From positions 1-8,488 of IMG/VR virus record IMGVR_UViG_2531839449_000010: DNA of 8,488 nt; one strand, 5' to 3'. A program made the position numbers and the translations under genes. Positions 1 to 6,554 of the stretch are shown here, one piece after another (the stretch's first letter is position 1; each line of letters starts with the position of its first letter). The stretch comes from a virus. Lineage: Duplodnaviria; Heunggongvirae; Uroviricota; Caudoviricetes. The notes under the pieces are model-generated. The model was not told the origin of the DNA, did no database searches, and was given only the letters and a program-made list of their open reading frames with translations.

Positions 1-395
1 AGCTGGTCAGGTCGTTCTGCCACGAACTGACGGTTTACGCGGTCGCCTGCGGCAACGGCTTTCCGGCTGATGGTCGTACGGACCTTTTTACCCCGGAGAA
101 CACCGGCAAGTCCCATAACCGCCATGAGACGTGCCACTGTACATCTGGCCACCCTGATTCCTTCCCGTAACAACTGACGCCAGACTTTACGCACACCGTA
201 CACCTGATGATTTTCATCGTATACGCGCTGTATCTCTCTCTTCAGCCAGTCGTCGTGCTGCGCACGGGCACTGCGTTTATCCGGATGATGTCGCTGTTGC
301 TGACAATGGTAATACGTTGACGGGGCAATATGCAGTTCGCTGCATACCGGTCCGACCCCGTACTGCTCACGCAGCTTATCCAGCAGTGGCATCAT
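1..395 (-). CDS. IS3-family transposase OrfB (DDE integrase-type), N-terminal part only; normally expressed as an OrfAB fusion by -1 frameshift
   Basis: Hand translation of the rc from 395 gives [132 protein letters not shown], open to the window edge. It is in the -1 frame relative to orfA and is absent from the ORF track because no stop lies in the window. Confidence 0.8.
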
Positions 396-718
396 TTTTT
401 CCAGAGGCGGTCGAACTCCGCCTTCGCAAAATAAGCGGAAGCCTGGCGAAGGATATCGTTACTGCGGCGCAGTTCACGATTTTCACGTTCCAGCTCTTTC
501 AGACGCTGACGTTCAGCGCTGGTGAGCCCACCATCACCGCCCCCGGTATCCCGCTCATGCTGGCGAACCCAGACACGCAGAGTCTCCGGCGTACAGCCAA
601 TCTTTGGGGCAATGGAGCAAATTGCCGCCCACTGTGAGTCATATTCATCCTGACTTTCCAGAACCATACGAATCGCCCGCTGACGGACTTCGGGGGAAAA
701 ACGAGTATTTTTAGTCAT
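392..718 (-). CDS. IS3-family transposase OrfA (helix-turn-helix DNA-binding subunit)
   Basis: 108-aa [33 protein letters not shown]..., identical to the right-hand copy at 7942..8268. C-terminal leucine-rich heptad region ([20 protein letters not shown]) is typical of IS3 OrfA. AGG at 731..733, 9 nt upstream of the ATG, is a possible Shine-Dalgarno. Confidence 0.9.
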
Positions 719-723
719 CCTGT

Positions 724-1326
724 TTACCTCTTTCTCAGGGAGTTTAGTCTCCAGGATTTCCGGGGCGGTTCAACCATCTCAATGGATGGTGTTCCGCATT
801 GGTTACCCCAGACATCAAATCCATGCGAGGTGTGACGGGCGAACAGTTCTATCCGGGGAACATCGCCAAGAAGTTGCACAAGTTTTTCTCGCGCCATATC
901 CGGCTTGCGGGAGTGATCAAGGCGCGGTGCAGTGAATGACTGGATTATTCCGGCGTTAATGCGTTCAGGCAGATTTCCTTTCACTGCAAAAAGGCAGTCT
1001 TCGCTGTTAGCGCGAGTGGTGCTACCCATACCCATGACCAGCTTGTCGGTCTGTCTTTTCCCGCATTTGTTCCAGGTTAATCCTTTCATCGTCACCAGAC
1101 GAAAGCCCCACGCTTCTACAACCTTCAATGCTTCAAGTGGTTGTGTAGGCACCCACCACATAGCCAACAGGCAATTATCGGCTGCCAGTTCCCATACCGG
1201 GAGGCGGCAGATATCCAGAAGACTCATGACCGGATATTTAAAACTTGCACCGCGTTGACCATCGGTTGCTTTGTCTCGGAATGTCCAGGGGGGATCTGCG
1301 TAAATGAGAGTGTATTTTTTCGTCAT
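724..1326 (-). CDS. MT-A70-family DNA N6-adenine methyltransferase (phage orphan methylase); 3' end interrupted by the IS, so residues 186-200 are IS-encoded
   Basis: N-terminal motif LIYADPPW (catalytic DPPW). The ATG at 1324..1326 overlaps the stop of the upstream gene (ATGA). The reading frame crosses the IS boundary at 772/773; the tail [15 protein letters not shown] is translated from IS terminal sequence. Confidence 0.8.
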
Positions 1327-1526
1327 AGCGCGTTTTCAAACTCATCAATGTAAAGTGCAACAAGTGCAACGCATCGTCTGAAATCGGCTGCGTCATGTGG
1401 AGCACCGAAGCTATGACCATAGATATTCTTTTTCAGTCCACATGCGATTGAGGCAAGAGTTGCGCTACTGATGCCAACATCGCCAGTCGATTGCCATTTC
1501 AAAACCTTCATAGCCAAATCTGACAT
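1323..1526 (-). CDS. hypothetical small prophage protein (67 aa)
   Basis: ATG at 1524..1526 preceded by GGAGA at a 7-nt spacing. Stop overlaps the methyltransferase start (ATGA), suggesting translational coupling. Confidence 0.55.
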   Translation of the reverse strand: MSDLAMKVLKWQSTGDVGISSATLASIACGLKKNIYGHSFGAPHDAADFRRCVALVALYIDEFENAL

Positions 1527-1539
1527 TTCTTGTCTCCAT

Positions 1540-1563
1540 AAAACAAAACCCGCCGTAGCGAGT
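1540..1563 (-). terminator. candidate intrinsic terminator (distal of a tandem pair)
   Basis: Minus-strand RNA ACUCGC-UACG-GCGGGU forms a 6-bp stem (one G.U) with a tetraloop, followed by UUUGUUUU. Lies between the stop at 1645 and the next start at 1526. Confidence 0.4.
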
Positions 1564-1566
1564 TCA

Positions 1567-1594
1567 GATAAAAGAAATCCCCGCGAGTGCGAGG
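1567..1594 (-). terminator. candidate intrinsic terminator (proximal of a tandem pair)
   Basis: Minus-strand RNA CCUCGC-ACUC-GCGGGG forms a 6-bp stem (one G.U) with a tetraloop, followed by AUUUCUUUUAUC. Same stem design as the hairpin at 1540..1563. Confidence 0.4.
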
Positions 1595-1644
1595 ATTGTT
1601 ATTCATTGCCGATATTCACCTTTATCGCGAACACCTTTACCGGT

Positions 1645-1887
1645 TTATCTCCTTTGCATGGCGCGTAATTTTTTCAGATGGTTCTCCTGCTCTGTTTCAG
1701 CCAGAATTTGTCGGTATTCCTGGTGATCGATCCGTTCAAACAGTTCATTAAAATCGTTTATTTTTACCGACTGTGTTCGCCCATCCATTCTTCTGTACAA
1801 CACAGTGTTGTTTATGCAGCGAAGAATTTTTATCGGGTAGCCGGCGCTATCGGTGTATATCTGACCACGTTGAATCAGAGCGAACAT
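1645..1887 (-). CDS. hypothetical small prophage protein (80 aa from the ATG at 1887; the track ORF extends to a TTG at 1941)
   Basis: Open frame 1645..1941. The TTG at 1941 has AGGAG directly abutting it (spacing too short), so I prefer the internal ATG at 1885..1887 (MFALIQRGQIY...). The start is uncertain. Confidence 0.4.
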   Translation of the reverse strand: MFALIQRGQIYTDSAGYPIKILRCINNTVLYRRMDGRTQSVKINDFNELFERIDHQEYRQILAETEQENHLKKLRAMQRR

Positions 1888-1961
1888 TCCTTTATCCCCA
1901 GCGGAAAAGCGAATACAGAATAAATGCCACCGCGATTGCAACTCCTACAGCGGTGAATGCT

Positions 1962-2312
1962 TCAGGCCAATTCATCATTCACTCCCTGCGGCGGTTCTGG
2001 TAGCAGCATCCAGTACAAGGCGTTCCCTAACCACGATAAAGTGCCGTCGCTCAACTCCACGTATTCCTCTTGTACCTGTCCTGCCATATACTCACCGTGC
2101 TTTGAATAAATTAAAATCCAATCATCTTGAGCGGGCATTCGCTCACTACAGCTTATCCAACCACCCGGACTTACCGGAGAGTTGCCAGTCTTACGCATGG
2201 CAATCTCCACGATTTCAACCATATCTCCTGGCAGAATTTTACAAAGCTGGCCAAAGCGCCTCTGCTGCCTGGCATACTCGAGGATGTGCTCCAGTTTGGT
2301 TCGATTAATCAT
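1962..2312 (-). CDS. DUF551-like prophage protein (115 aa)
   Basis: C-terminal segment GWISCSERMPAQDDWILIY...GEYMAG...YWMLLPEPP resembles the DUF551 pattern (WIS..ERLP...W.PLPEPP) as I recall it. ATG at 2310..2312 overlaps the upstream stop (ATGA). Confidence 0.5.
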   Translation of the reverse strand: MINRTKLEHILEYARQQRRFGQLCKILPGDMVEIVEIAMRKTGNSPVSPGGWISCSERMPAQDDWILIYSKHGEYMAGQVQEEYVELSDGTLSWLGNALYWMLLPEPPQGVNDELA

Positions 2313-2764
2313 GATTTATCTCCCTTAAGCATGGCAGCGCGGCAGGCATCCTCTACGCCCTTAACTGCATCTGCGCAGTAGTTATAGCGATTGCATTCCA
2401 CTAACTTCTGCTTGAGGTTTTCAATTGCTTGCGCGACATCAGCCTGTATTACCGGAACTGGCGGAGTGGTATATAGTTTTCGGCATTTGTTTATCCAACC
2501 GGCATGGTCAGGCGTGTCTGTAAAGCGCAAATCGTTTTCGTAGCCCTCACGACTACGTTCTTTCCATTCCGTCCACGGAACACCGCTATTCCAAGTGGGG
2601 CGAGTGCAGGACTGATACAGAACAGGTTCAGCTTCCAGCGCTGCCAGAGCAATCCGTGCCAGTTCTTCCGCTTCTTCTGCTGGCAGTACAACGTTGCTAC
2701 CAGGTCCGTATGTTTCGCGCCACTGCTTGATTGTCAGCAGTCGCTCTTTGGTAATAGTGGTCAT
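2309..2764 (-). CDS. hypothetical prophage early-region protein (151 aa)
   Basis: ATG at 2762..2764 preceded by GAGGA at a 7-nt spacing and overlapping the upstream stop (ATGA). No family recognised. Confidence 0.55.
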   Translation of the reverse strand: MTTITKERLLTIKQWRETYGPGSNVVLPAEEAEELARIALAALEAEPVLYQSCTRPTWNSGVPWTEWKERSREGYENDLRFTDTPDHAGWINKCRKLYTTPPVPVIQADVAQAIENLKQKLVECNRYNYCADAVKGVEDACRAAMLKGDKS

Positions 2765-2970
2765 TTGTTAATCCTCAAAACTTTATGCCCGGGCGCAAAA
2801 GCACGCGTTTTGTCTTTGCTTATTCGCCAGCCATCCTTGCGCGCCTCTTTTGCACAGCCAGCCCATGACGTACCTATATACTCACCGAAGTCTGGCGACT
2901 TATATTTGCCATCTGTACACTGGAGGCAATCACAATAGAGATGCATGGTGTAACTTGCAGCAATAGCCAT
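2761..2970 (-). CDS. small cysteine-rich (putative zinc-binding) prophage protein, 69 aa from the internal ATG
   Basis: The track ORF 2761..3042 overlaps the upstream gene. The ATG at 2968..2970 (MAIAASYTMHLYCDCLQCTDGKYK...) has a strong AAGGAGAG Shine-Dalgarno 6 nt upstream and sits 1 nt after the upstream stop. Contains a C-x-C-x2-C ... C pattern. Confidence 0.55.
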   Translation of the reverse strand: MAIAASYTMHLYCDCLQCTDGKYKSPDFGEYIGTSWAGCAKEARKDGWRISKDKTRAFAPGHKVLRINK

Positions 2971-2971
2971 A

Positions 2972-3319
2972 TCACTCTCCTTTAGTGCGCAAGTGGTTTT
3001 TCCAGCGGTTTTGCTCCGCGCTGGGCTTTTTGCAAAAACCACAATCCATCATCCCGTAATATTTCATCAACCCCATCCGTCGGTTGCTGAGTCTCACCCA
3101 CTGCCAGACGCCAGGAGCGTTTCTACGAACTAACAGAATCTTTGCTTTACGGTTTTTCATCGTTTTGCTCTCCTGCATCTCTTTGCTGCTCGTCGTGCCG
3201 CTGCAATACCGGTATGGCGGCGCTTTGGTGTCGGGATGATGTTCTTTGCAATTAGCGCAGAAGCCCAAAAACGAGTCGGATACGGTAACAAACTGATACA
3301 TGCCACACGCATTACTCAC
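2972..3319 (-). CDS. cysteine-rich putative zinc-finger protein; start uncertain (GTG at 3319 gives 115 aa, ATG at 3161 gives 63 aa)
   Basis: Continuous open frame with Cys pairs (FCANCKEHH...YRYCSG and MMDCGFCKK). The GTG at 3317..3319 overlaps the upstream stop by 8 nt but has a poorly spaced AAAGGGGG. The internal ATG at 3159..3161 has a strong AGGAGAG at a 7-nt spacing. Confidence 0.45.
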   Translation of the reverse strand: MSNACGMYQFVTVSDSFLGFCANCKEHHPDTKAPPYRYCSGTTSSKEMQESKTMKNRKAKILLVRRNAPGVWQWVRLSNRRMGLMKYYGMMDCGFCKKPSAEQNRWKNHLRTKGE

Positions 3320-3860
3320 CCCCTTTGTTGCTAATGCTTACAGCCTGGCAAGCCTCTTTGAGTACCCAGTCAACAGCGTCTTTCCATGCTCCGGTTTCAA
3401 CAGATGGATTCTCACGCTTTACCTGTTCATAAAAGCGCACTGCTTTAATCAGTTCTTCCGGTACTACTGGCGATGCCTGTTTAGCTTCTAAATCAGCAAT
3501 TCTGTCAACCACGGCATCTACTGCATCTGAAAAACTGAAACAGTTACTCCATTCCGGCCTGTCCCCGGTTGCTGCAAAATACATATCAGCTAAAGCAGAC
3601 TCAGCATGGTCACGCTCATTAATGAGTTGCTCTTCGCTTTTCTCCTGTTCGGCTATGCGCTTACTTCCATCCGCGATTACTCCCTCGTAATACTCACGCT
3701 GCTCGTTGAGTTTTGATTTTGCTGCTTCCAACTCATCCAGTAGCGCCAGCACAACCTGAGGTGTGGCTTTCATACGAAATGCCAGCAATTTTTGAGGCGT
3801 TGCTACTGTTTCAATTGCTACTGCCGCCTCACGCAGTGCCTGGTAATTAATTTCGCTCAC
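3312..3860 (-). CDS. Ead/Ea22-like prophage protein (182 aa, GTG start)
   Basis: N-terminus (V/M)SEINYQALREAA... is the Ead/Ea22-like family signature as I recall it, followed by a coiled-coil-like charged heptad region. AAGGAGG lies 6 nt upstream of the GTG at 3858..3860, which overlaps the upstream stop (GTGA). Confidence 0.6.
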   Translation of the reverse strand: MSEINYQALREAAVAIETVATPQKLLAFRMKATPQVVLALLDELEAAKSKLNEQREYYEGVIADGSKRIAEQEKSEEQLINERDHAESALADMYFAATGDRPEWSNCFSFSDAVDAVVDRIADLEAKQASPVVPEELIKAVRFYEQVKRENPSVETGAWKDAVDWVLKEACQAVSISNKGGE

Positions 3861-4621
3861 TGGTTGCCTCCTTTGCGAAGCTCAGCGGCGAAAGATGTTG
3901 CTGCGGAAGCGATAATTGCATGCCGGTATTCACCATCAGAAAATAAAGAATCTCCCTTAAGTGCATTGACGATACTCTGATGATTTTTTGCCAGCATCTC
4001 CACGCCCTGCGCCCGTACTTCAGCCAGGCATTTGCGAAACTCGGAAACGTACTGTTCGACGCTCATTCCCCAGCTAAGTGGACATTCATTGAATGTTTCG
4101 CCTTCGTGCTCTTCATCAGGTAGCTCTTTGGTAAAGAACTCACGCTCAATGGCGTGGAGTGTGTCAGCAAAACGACGTAAGTTACTCAAACCTACCGTAA
4201 TGGAGAATTCAGGAGCATCACATCCGACGCCCATCTGCTGATAAACTGCTGTTTTGAAGGCCTTCAACTCCGCATTCTCCGCCGCCAGAGCCGAAAACTT
4301 CTCGTGTGCCAACTTAACAGCCGAATCAGCCTGCTTAATTGACTCAATCGCTTTCTGTTGGTCTTCGGCCAGCTTCGCTAAATTAGCCTCCAGTTCGGCC
4401 ATGCGTTCGTTTAATGCATCTCGTTCATCCAGTAGTGACAGCACGGTTTCTGGCCCGGCCATAATTTTAAAGGCGTGAATCGCATCAATATCAATACCAA
4501 GCTCCTTGAGCTTCTTTTCGCTTAATAAATCATCATCACCTGGTAATATTGACAGATGTGTCATCGCTGTAATTGCGCGTTCCGACACGTCACGCAATAC
4601 CTGATAGTCAATTTTGCTCAC
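3857..4621 (-). CDS. Ead/Ea22-like prophage protein, second tandem paralog (254 aa from the GTG at 4621)
   Basis: The track ORF 3857..4969 (370 aa) is over-extended. The in-frame GTG at 4619..4621 (VSKIDYQVLRDVSERA...) has the same AAGGAGGCAACCA-GTG initiation context as the paralog at 3860. The upstream stretch 4622..4969 is accounted for by two other coupled genes. Confidence 0.55.
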   Translation of the reverse strand: MSKIDYQVLRDVSERAITAMTHLSILPGDDDLLSEKKLKELGIDIDAIHAFKIMAGPETVLSLLDERDALNERMAELEANLAKLAEDQQKAIESIKQADSAVKLAHEKFSALAAENAELKAFKTAVYQQMGVGCDAPEFSITVGLSNLRRFADTLHAIEREFFTKELPDEEHEGETFNECPLSWGMSVEQYVSEFRKCLAEVRAQGVEMLAKNHQSIVNALKGDSLFSDGEYRHAIIASAATSFAAELRKGGNQ

Positions 4622-4856
4622 TGGTTGCCTCCTTTGTGGATCTGCGCTGCGATGCACGAAAAAAAGATTCCCGCGTATGACAGTTAAGAGCTGGTGCGAA
4701 AGCCGCGTTAAGAACGGCAGCATCACAGCCGTCATCGATATAGAGCGCAATTTTTTTCTCCAGGCGCGCTTTGGCTTCCTGCAACTGCATACCCCGGCAC
4801 GTACGCGGGATATACTCAGCAATTTGAGCGATAGATTTTTCGTTCTGTTTAAACAT
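4608..4856 (-). CDS. hypothetical small prophage protein (82 aa)
   Basis: ATG at 4854..4856 overlaps the upstream stop by 8 nt (ATGTTTAA). Its own stop lies 14 nt inside the next gene. No family recognised. Confidence 0.5.
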   Translation of the reverse strand: MFKQNEKSIAQIAEYIPRTCRGMQLQEAKARLEKKIALYIDDGCDAAVLNAAFAPALNCHTRESFFRASQRRSTKEATSEQN

Positions 4857-5052
4857 GCTTCACCTCGACAGGCTTGATTGTGTCGATCAGCAGTCTGCGG
4901 CGCGTATTTTCTGCAAAGTGGCGGCGTCCGGTTTCTTTGTGGTAAAACTCGTTTTTGCCGACGACCCACATCCGCTCTGTCTGGTGAAGTTTTTTTACCT
5001 GCGGGCCGCCTTTGGTGATCACAATGCCGGTATGGGTTTTTACGATTGTCAT
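4849..5052 (-). CDS. hypothetical small prophage protein (67 aa)
   Basis: ATG at 5050..5052 overlaps the PAPS-reductase-like stop (ATGA), with GAGG 9 nt upstream. No family recognised. Confidence 0.5.
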   Translation of the reverse strand: MTIVKTHTGIVITKGGPQVKKLHQTERMWVVGKNEFYHKETGRRHFAENTRRRLLIDTIKPVEVKHV

Positions 5053-5927
5053 GCCACTACCTCTTCGAATTTCAACTCCAATTGGTCACCCCAGATTTCA
5101 CATGATTCGGAACACGAACCAGTATCAAACCGCTTGGCCAGCACCATCGCTTGATACAAATTGCTGTAGTCGCTGTCGGCATACATCCTGGCAATCCCGT
5201 CAAGCGTCAGGTGACCACGGTACATAACGTCTTTACCTGTTCTGCGATGACCATCCCTGACGTGTTTGCCTGTAACCAGTTCATTAAAAACCCGCATCAG
5301 ACCAGGTTCGTCTTTACATGCAAGCCCCAGCTTTTGCGTTGACTTTTTGATGCAGAAAACACAGTTCCCGAGGTGCTCCGGGATTTGCAAATCAAAAGGT
5401 TGTTTTCGCCACCACCGGATAACATCCGACTTATCAAAATCTGACAGTTCGGCAAGATACCGGACGCCCGGTTTCGGTTTCAGCCTACGGGGTTCGTCTG
5501 CACGAATACCCAGCCACGTGATGTAGTTCCCTTGTCCGAAATGGTCATCGCAGTATTTTGTGAAGGGGGTGAGTTTTAATCTGTCAGTGCAGAACGCGCC
5601 GCCGATGTATGGCGTGCCATATTTTTTTACCATGTCCATAAACGGTTTAAGCACCGGCATTCGCGTCTGAATATCCTTTGGTTCCCATTCCGTATAACCA
5701 TTTGGCTGCCCAAGCTCTGGATTTATATCGACCTGCAACACGGTTAGCGGAATATCCCAGAACTTCACAACCTCCCGAATAAACCGGTACGTCAGCGGGT
5801 GTTCACATCCCGTATCCATGAGTATGTAATGAACGTTTTCACCAGCTTTTCTGCGTTGCTCCATAAGGTGGACGAGGTACGCCGATGTCCGACCGCCTGA
5901 AAAACTCACAACATGATGAGTGCTCAT
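5049..5927 (-). CDS. phosphoadenosine-phosphosulfate (PAPS) reductase-like PP-loop ATP-pyrophosphatase family protein (292 aa)
   Basis: N-terminal PP-loop motif VVSFSGGRTSAYL (SGGxxS). C-terminal cysteine pairs (CVFC, CSESC). Complete ORF starting at the ATG at 5925..5927. Confidence 0.8.
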   Translation of the reverse strand: MSTHHVVSFSGGRTSAYLVHLMEQRRKAGENVHYILMDTGCEHPLTYRFIREVVKFWDIPLTVLQVDINPELGQPNGYTEWEPKDIQTRMPVLKPFMDMVKKYGTPYIGGAFCTDRLKLTPFTKYCDDHFGQGNYITWLGIRADEPRRLKPKPGVRYLAELSDFDKSDVIRWWRKQPFDLQIPEHLGNCVFCIKKSTQKLGLACKDEPGLMRVFNELVTGKHVRDGHRRTGKDVMYRGHLTLDGIARMYADSDYSNLYQAMVLAKRFDTGSCSESCEIWGDQLELKFEEVVA

Positions 5928-6034
5928 TTCTTCGTCTCGTTACGGGGAGGGGGTTAAATAGGTGGTAAGCTGGAATTGCCGGATGTTTACCCGTGTCCGG
6001 GGTACGGCCTCACGTTGCAGCGTACGAGAATGGA

Positions 6035-6478
6035 CTATTGCTCAGTGTCGTTTGATGTCGGCTGAGGATATTCGCCTTGCTCTTGTAACAGAGTTAGAAG
6101 AATGGAAAACCCCTCACGATGTGATGATTGATGAGTGTCGATCCCGGAATGATTGATGTTGTTAAATTCCAACATCGTGCTCCTGGCGATAGCCTCAACG
6201 GTATTCCAGAATACTAATACATCTGTTTTCTGCTCTGTTTTATCAGCAACAGGAAGTTTGATATTTTGTTGAAATTTATTAATGCAACCATTTTGAATAT
6301 GTTCCTCGTGCTTTTCATTGTCATAAGCATACAGCCCGACAAAAACATCTCGCACGTTACGGGATATATTTTCCAGATTCGCCTTTGGTTCCTTTGTTAA
6401 ATCAAGCACCGATAAATGGGCTTTAAGCGTATCCGCAGCTATTTTCTGAATATCCTCTGGTAAATCTTTAAATTGCAT
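6035..6478 (-). CDS. hypothetical protein (147 aa), AT-rich moron-like gene
   Basis: ATG at 6476..6478 with GGAGGG at a 7-nt spacing. Hand count gives about 37% GC for 6181..6480, against about 45-50% in neighbouring genes. No family recognised. Confidence 0.55.
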   Translation of the reverse strand: MQFKDLPEDIQKIAADTLKAHLSVLDLTKEPKANLENISRNVRDVFVGLYAYDNEKHEEHIQNGCINKFQQNIKLPVADKTEQKTDVLVFWNTVEAIARSTMLEFNNINHSGIDTHQSSHREGFSILLTLLQEQGEYPQPTSNDTEQ

Positions 6479-6554
6479 AGTATACCCTCCAAGAACTGTG
6501 TATTTTCTCGTGAAATATGAGCGATATGTCGTGACGTCCCTGTCACAGATTTCA

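Follow-up and report, generated by a model that had tools for sequence, protein, structure and literature searches.

The viral DNA stretch described here, IMG/VR record IMGVR_UViG_2531839449_000010 (Caudoviricetes; positions 1 to 8,488), contains a gene that encodes an ortholog of the phage lambda protein NinC. We refer to the whole 8,488-nucleotide stretch as the window. The gene (5049–5927, minus strand) is an intact open reading frame (ORF) with an ATG start, its 5′ start being MSTHHVVSFSGGRTSAY, and specifies a 292-amino-acid (aa) PP-loop protein of the phosphoadenosine phosphosulfate (PAPS) reductase superfamily. BLASTP aligned the window protein to lambda NinC (NP_040635, 290 aa) with 230 of 288 residues identical (80%) and no gaps, and the phrog_424 profile matched residues 2–291 (E = 8.6e-93). 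This orthology was missed in the preliminary description of the DNA. We tentatively propose that NinC is a DNA-modifying anti-restriction enzyme that would act through ATP-dependent, cysteine- or iron–sulfur (Fe-S)-based sulfur transfer on phage DNA, a reading that we consider plausible, if not quite probable. Phosphorothioation as the specific modification seems rather unlikely.

A protein identical to that of the window (100%) is encoded by Shigella phage Ss-VASD, and phages converting their hosts to Shiga toxin (Stx) 2a production carry a 99.7% identical version. The window gene is present in 552 of 5426 complete Escherichia coli genomes (~10%), and a copy with 99.9% identity was found in a lambdoid prophage of E. 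coli O103:H2 12009. HMMER searches of 1.84 billion cluster representatives assigned 1550 clusters to the NinC family at E ≤ 1e-3 and 799 at E ≤ 1e-10, while a phage collection contained 584 NinC-family records, mostly from phages of Vibrio, Salmonella, Escherichia and Klebsiella. The gene itself is already known, as lambda ninC, and its PHROG family is annotated in hundreds of genomes.

The window protein resembles lambda NinC over its full length, with identical motifs and an identical set of five conserved cysteines, and both are products of accessory lambdoid-phage genes that are early, N-dependent and non-essential. Their genomic positions differ. An 80%-identical copy in Salmonella phage Oslo occupies the ninC slot, with a Dam methylase gene directly before it and ninD after it. 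Lambda and Oslo thus carry ninC in the rightward operon, within the nin region, after ninB or dam and before ninD, whereas the window copy lies in the leftward pL operon, with the YfdQ module on one side and the Ead/Ea22 genes on the other; neither the window gene nor the E. coli O103:H2 copy holds the nin-region position between ninB and ninD. The window gene is, in our view, a lambda ninC cassette that has left the rightward nin region for the leftward early operon. Under laboratory conditions, lambda can do without ninC (PMC10695390). Comparison of the window gene with lambda ninC gave a nonsynonymous divergence (pN) of 0.127 against a saturated synonymous divergence (pS) of 0.75. On this measure the protein is under strong purifying selection, which shows that the gene is in use although lambda ninC is non-essential.

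Conserved motifs of the window protein

Translation of the gene confirmed the SGGxxS PP-loop and the cysteine pairs that had been claimed for it, and revealed a fifth conserved cysteine, Cys113, besides the two pairs. The PP-loop, SFSGGRTS (residues 8–15; 5883–5906, minus strand), is the ATP-pyrophosphate binding motif, and its S10, G12 and S15 are invariant. The CTDRLK motif (5574–5591, minus) contributes the invariant C113 and K118, which are candidates for active-site residues and for a metal or Fe-S ligand. A conserved CxxC pair lies in GNCVFCIKK (5343–5369, minus; G187 N188 C189 x x C192 x K K195). The remaining two cysteines form a CSESC dyad, C272-x3-C276 (5100–5114, minus), in a low-confidence C-terminal tail that is probably flexible.

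Conservation was assessed in two NinC-family alignments (A1 and A2), with 34 and 48 sequences and identities down to 27%. Invariant positions comprise S10, G12, S15, T39, G40, E42, F49, C113, K118, G140 and R142, followed by D144, E145, R148, Y157, L180, G187, N188, C189, K195, C272 and C276. Cys192 shows no variation in one alignment, and at least 90% of the sequences in the other have it. Because these residues are invariant or nearly so down to 27% identity, the motifs of the window protein are family signatures and not chance occurrences.

Membership in the PAPS-reductase superfamily, also part of the preliminary description, is borne out by structure searches and by Pfam PAPS_reduct (PF01507), which matches residues 5–73 only (E = 1.9e-8). 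The AlphaFold2 model of the window protein has a mean predicted local distance difference test (pLDDT) score of 90.1 and a predicted template modeling score of 0.87. The pLDDT drops to 57 across residues 271–280, the tail bearing C272 and C276, and the model thereby suggests that this C-terminal segment is mobile.

PptA, a structurally solved relative

Profile searching of PDB sequences identified chain C of PDB 21fy, named "PptA", with matches in the PP-loop region and at CTTQLK and NNCVGCVKG. PptA is 100% identical to the hypothetical protein QGH73774.1 of Vibrio phage vB_VhaP_VH-5 (Autographiviridae), in which the gene (L086:6001–6753) is encoded alone, right after the phage RNA polymerase gene. 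In databases the PptA family numbers about 3600 proteins, chiefly encoded by marine and other phages, and its five invariant cysteines are C92, C173xxC176 and C237xxxC241.

Comparison of the NinC and PptA alignments with hhalign gave an end-to-end match over 234 columns (99.25% probability, E = 5e-20). The NinC CTDRLK aligns with the PptA CTxxLK, GNCVFCIKK with NNCxGCVKG, and C272/C276 with the CxxxC. The two families therefore have in common the PP-loop, CTxxLK, NCxxCxK and the C-terminal CxxxC, and PptA, like the window protein, is phage-encoded and stand-alone. PptA is nevertheless distinct, being ~250 aa long, ~21% identical and typical of marine podoviruses, and the alignments point to a sister family of NinC and not to the same family. 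Our literature search on PptA found no publication; its function might settle that of NinC.

A PptA-like gene on a metagenomic contig (L085:44–789) is split into ORFs of 51 and 188 aa, the cause being either a frameshift or faulty assembly, and lies directly upstream of a Prim-Pol/PriCT_2/DUF5906 primase gene, a further case of a replication-module neighbor.

NinC is linked to DNA methyltransferases

Three independent architectures join relatives of NinC to N6-adenine DNA methyltransferases. NinC-Dam fusions are represented by P0121, P0127, P0158 and the Vibrio phage protein P0087, the reverse Dam-NinC order by P0123 and P0126, and fusion to a D12 class methylase (NinC-D12) by P0128. Methylases also recur as neighbors. 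A Pfam survey of 50 dereplicated IMG/VR loci counted six Dam fusions, with two Dam genes and one MT-A70 gene immediately upstream of NinC and three C5 methylase genes immediately downstream. When Dam and MT-A70 genes within ±8 kb were located by tblastn, 9 of 11 were fused to NinC or lay no more than 300 bp from it (binomial tail 4.6e-8, against an assumed, generous chance rate of 10%). No adjacent methylase was present in 38 of the 50 loci, nor in lambda. Other neighbors in the 50 loci include the replication and recombination genes for DnaB, NinB, NinG, RdgC, YqaJ, RusA, Prim-Pol and helicases, and both upstream and downstream neighbors are heterogeneous across the set.

The window itself carries a methyltransferase gene of the MT-A70 type (724–1326, minus strand), with a DPPW motif and matches to Pfam PF05063 (E = 1.1e-22), PADLOC MTase_II (2e-83) and phrog_359. 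It lies ~3.7 kb downstream of the ninC-type gene in the same leftward operon.

A close homolog implicated in escape from Dnd

Over 281 aa, the window protein is 56% identical (E = 4e-111) to the N-terminal domain of p0018 of Vibrio phage 44E38.1, a 479-aa PAPS-Dam fusion described as a 'Dam methyltransferase with PAPS reductase domain'. The likeness extends across the entire NinC domain and takes in CTDRxK, GNCVFCIKK and GSCSESCE, and both genes are early or accessory genes of phages. The proteins differ in that p0018 continues into a C-terminal Dam domain (PF05869), while the window protein is stand-alone and ends 10 residues past the homologous region. According to the preprint of Piel et al., a related, sensitive "blue" phage into which p0018 and the adjacent p0019 had recombined reached 1e11 plaque-forming units (PFU)/ml on a host retaining Dnd (bioRxiv 10.1101/2021.05.05.442762).

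No counterpart of the partner protein p0019 (DUF6475) was found in the window. The 147-aa gene upstream of the ninC-type gene was considered as a conserved partner and rejected; its product is unrelated to p0019, and the neighbors in the 50 loci are heterogeneous.

An anti-defense role for such proteins is not a new idea. It was proposed by Piel et al. 2022 for the close homolog, and a 2026 paper in Nucleic Acids Research, which cites that work, puts forward phage PAPS reductases as homologs of DndC/SspD that have been co-opted to evade restriction–modification or phosphorothioation systems (PMC13551039).

Comparison with DndC, SspD and BrxP

Among defense-system profiles (PADLOC), SspD matched the window protein best (E = 9.3e-15, 53 bits, residues 4–148), followed by DndC (2e-4) and BrxP (1e-3). 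The SspD match spans only model positions 1–121 of 277, and the curated DndC model TIGR03183 scored 17.2 bits against a cut-off of 290.4, across residues 6–146 only. Judged by these scores, the window protein is not a member of the DndC, SspD or BrxP families. It has in common with them the PP-loop superfamily, with SspD as the best named hidden Markov model (HMM) match, and DndC, SspD and BrxP themselves act on DNA in defense and counter-defense conflicts. The differences extend to size and gene context. The window protein has 292 aa, compared to ~450–480 aa for DndC and ~780 aa for BrxP. In the O103:H2 prophage and the 50 viral loci, NinC has no linked DndD/SspC/BrxC ATPase, DndE/SspB or cysteine desulfurase. 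Specifically, dndD and dndE were found neither in the window, nor in the homologous O103:H2 prophage, nor beside NinC in the 50 loci, and sspB and sspC were absent as neighbors from the same prophage and loci.

DndC is described as a PP-loop ATP pyrophosphatase with a 4Fe-4S center on three cysteines and a separate, putatively sulfur-receiving cysteine dyad (PMC10853773). The five conserved NinC cysteines, arranged 1+2+2, comprise C113 and C189xxC192 plus C272xxxC276. The resulting 3+2 count resembles that of DndC, a likeness drawn from the published description and not from residue alignment. We infer the parallel from conservation, and a cluster in NinC would accordingly be a prediction and not a demonstrated feature. 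A protein of the PAPS-reductase type that makes phosphorothioate outside dnd and ssp clusters is known: BrxP of BREX type 4, which requires the BrxC ATPase (PMC12914056).

A proposed mechanism for NinC

In the mechanism we favor, NinC would be a stand-alone enzyme of the adenine-nucleotide alpha-hydrolase (PP-loop) fold that binds ATP at the SGGxxS loop and adenylates an oxygen of phage DNA, possibly a backbone phosphate by analogy with DndC, SspD and BrxP. The AMP would then be replaced by sulfur. This sulfur may come from the host cysteine desulfurase (IscS) and be relayed via the flexible Cys272/Cys276 dyad, with a putative metal or [4Fe-4S] site of Cys113, Cys189 and Cys192 assisting the reaction. 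The mark, or a related ATP-dependent modification of the DNA, would be placed at an early stage of infection or induction, and restriction systems that sense modification, chiefly the phosphorothioate-based Dnd system (DndFGH), might then accept replicating phage DNA as 'self'. Choice of site could be provided by a partner N6-adenine methyltransferase, which is fused or adjacent in relatives and might here be the MT-A70 enzyme of the operon; alternatively, host Dnd components could provide it. Such a gene would be expected to be dispensable on laboratory hosts free of defense systems.

The nucleic-acid-modifying or anti-defense role suggested in the preliminary description draws support from the Dnd-escape homolog, from the methylase fusions and adjacency, and from SspD as the best HMM match. 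It remains a proposal about function. A stronger version, that the NinC family including lambda NinC consists of self-sufficient or methylase-guided phosphorothioation enzymes needing only a host cysteine desulfurase, is in our judgment doubtful. If it were true, lambdoid and many marine phages would practice 'epigenetic mimicry' of hosts with Dnd or Ssp, and a single ~290-aa protein would be a minimal phosphorothioation machine that works without a DndD/SspC-type ATPase. The auxiliary sulfur-metabolism reading of phage 'PAPS reductase' genes would then be wrong for the NinC clade.

Several points weigh against NinC as a sulfur-transferring anti-restriction enzyme. We infer the function of the window protein, and of lambda NinC itself, from comparison of sequences. 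Lambda DNA has been chemically studied for decades, and we know of no report of a sulfur modification in it. Similarity to SspD and DndC in HMM searches is confined to the N-terminal half (for DndC, 17 against 290 bits), and structure searches fail to separate DNA sulfurtransferases from tRNA thiolases or CysH. The metal or Fe-S assignment derives from cysteine conservation only, and a structural zinc site built from C189, C192, C272 and C276 would be an alternative. Known phosphorothioation depends on an ATPase partner (DndD, SspC or BrxC) together with a protein that recognizes DNA (PMC12914056), and neither kind of gene is encoded beside NinC in the window or the 50 loci. Finally, the Vibrio swap brought in two genes and took out four, two of them for methylases (bioRxiv 10.1101/2021.05.05.442762), and its effect is therefore not assignable to the PAPS domain alone.

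NinC is among the few lambda proteins still lacking a function. Because its five cysteines are common to the solved PptA, because relatives are fused to methylases and because a 56%-identical homolog is associated with Dnd escape, a testable hypothesis for NinC is now available; it is concrete and can be checked directly in lambda. Added here are the recognition of the Stx-prophage gene as NinC, the five-cysteine signature common to NinC and PptA, the quantified linkage to methylases and the failure of the CysH tests, which are described below.

Alternative explanations

Microbiome studies have interpreted phage 'PAPS reductase' genes as auxiliary genes of sulfur metabolism. By this account the window gene would encode a true PAPS or adenosine phosphosulfate (APS) reductase of the CysH type that boosts host sulfate assimilation during infection, which we consider very improbable. 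Structural likeness to CysH does exist. It is limited to a core of ~160–185 residues with template modeling (TM) scores of 0.37–0.5, and is equalled by TilS, LarE, NcsA and TtuA. Scores with the NCBIfam CysH models fall far under their cut-offs (TIGR00434, 16.1 bits against 165.1; PRK02090, 22.6 against 154). The ECGLH motif, which in CysH bears the C-terminal catalytic cysteine, was searched as the regular expression ECG[LIV]H and was absent from the window protein, from the 34 and 48 NinC-family sequences and from 25 PptA-family sequences. Where CysH has a degenerate SSSFG, the window protein bears the canonical ATP-type SFSGGRTS. Gene context agrees: no sulfate-assimilation neighbors were found in the window, the O103:H2 prophage or the 50 viral loci, and no cys genes lie near the ninC-type gene in that prophage; the neighbors are DNA methylases and replication and recombination genes. 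A metabolic CysH assignment was rejected on these four grounds, namely HMM cut-offs, motif, P-loop type and context. The HMM and structure comparison that had been suggested as a check thus gave no clear placement in a metabolic CysH clade, and the earlier view that the gene stands outside sulfate assimilation holds. Since the NinC/PptA clade fails every CysH test applied, ecological inferences about sulfur metabolism from such genes call for caution.

In a different account, NinC would thiolate or otherwise modify RNA. With a tRNA target, as for TtcA, TtuA, NcsA and TilS, it could tune phage translation or shield tRNAs from anticodon nucleases. We consider this improbable, as RNA-binding domains such as THUMP or PUA are absent from the window protein, its top match among named HMMs is SspD and no tRNA thiolase, the fusion partners are always DNA N6-adenine methylases with DNA-metabolism genes as neighbors, and the phenotype of the homolog is escape from DNA restriction. 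NinC might instead take part in another base hypermodification together with a Dam-type enzyme. The PP-loop domain would then adenylate either the carbonyl of a base or the carboxylate of a precursor, adding a nucleophile that is not necessarily sulfur, while the methylase would supply base flipping and sequence specificity, and the product would block several restriction systems and not Dnd specifically. Repeated fusion to Dam and D12, with both domain orders, tightly adjacent methylase genes and the MT-A70 gene in the same operon of Stx-type prophages all agree with this idea, as does the PP-loop enzyme QueC, found among the viral Foldseek matches, which works in phage 7-deazaguanine DNA modification. 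However, the five invariant cysteines point to sulfur chemistry, lambda NinC and most members (38 of 50 loci) have no nearby methylase, and the sole recorded phenotype concerns a phosphorothioate-based system. Hypermodification of this kind is in our estimation unlikely.

NinC might also leave DNA unmodified and antagonize defense indirectly, as a non-catalytic mimic of DndC or SspD that titrates or poisons host IscS, DndD/E or DndFGH, or that consumes a small-molecule cofactor. It does resemble the modification subunit of the very system reportedly defeated and comes without an ATPase or DNA-recognition partners of its own, and the known anti-Dnd protein JSS1_004 targets the DndFGH proteins and not DNA (PMC12345140). 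Yet the PP-loop, the catalytic-looking R/D/E residues and the conserved cysteines are strictly kept across two deeply diverged families, which argues for retained enzymatic activity. Blocking host modification alone would not shield phage DNA from DndFGH, and fusion to active-looking methylases would be hard to explain. Indirect antagonism is accordingly rated as quite unlikely.

Operon and prophage context

The ninC-type gene sits in the early-left (pL), N-antiterminated operon of a lambdoid Stx-type prophage, as shown by the gene order in E. coli O103:H2 12009, which also substantiates the early-operon context claimed previously. There the operon begins with Rha, kil, gamL, recT, exo, two hypothetical genes, YfdQ (DUF2303), a further hypothetical gene and the ninC-type gene. 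Small ORFs, Ead/Ea22 and DUF551 genes, antirepressors and the MT-A70 methylase follow, and the order ends with DUF1382, DUF1627, xis, int and tRNA-Arg. Within the window, same-strand upstream gaps of 63–107 bp and an ATGA overlap of stop and start codons likewise indicate an operon. The overlap joins the ninC stop to the start of a 67-aa ORF (4849–5052, minus; phrog_1226), whose product is listed as hypothetical in the E. coli O103 annotation.

Upstream of ninC, the same operon contains the 147-aa gene mentioned above (6035–6478, minus; phrog_1363) and the YfdQ/DUF2303 gene (6555–7376, minus; Pfam PF10065, E = 1.6e-65; phrog_210). A 115-aa gene (7440–7787, minus; phrog_204) lies further upstream and is conserved with the YfdQ gene in Stx-type prophages. 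On the downstream side, a 370-aa ORF (3857–4969, minus) is probably over-extended, as the O103:H2 annotation places there an Ead/Ea22-like gene of 225 aa and a 79-aa ORF. A second Ead/Ea22-like gene (3312–3860) is followed downstream by a DUF551 gene (1962–2312) and a DUF4222 gene (1645–1941).

Inverted copies of an IS3-family insertion sequence (IS), at 1–772 and 7888–8488 of the window, flank the 7.1-kb prophage piece, so that the operon is severed from its exo/recT side at one end and from its xis/int side at the other. The arms at 172–772 and 7888–8488 are 100% complementary, and the IS orfA is identical at 392–718 (minus) and 7942–8268 (plus); matching E. coli genomes annotate the element as IS1203. 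The whole window arrangement occurs in no complete E. coli genome, with at most 65% of it at any single location, and the window may therefore originate from Shigella or be an IS-rearranged prophage remnant.

At the far end of its early region, the O103:H2 prophage (L001:17366–18879), an intact relative of the one in the window, encodes a BsuBI/PstI-type restriction endonuclease, an Eco57I-type methylase and a Panacea-domain protein. With these genes, the phage bears both defense and putative counter-defense cargo.

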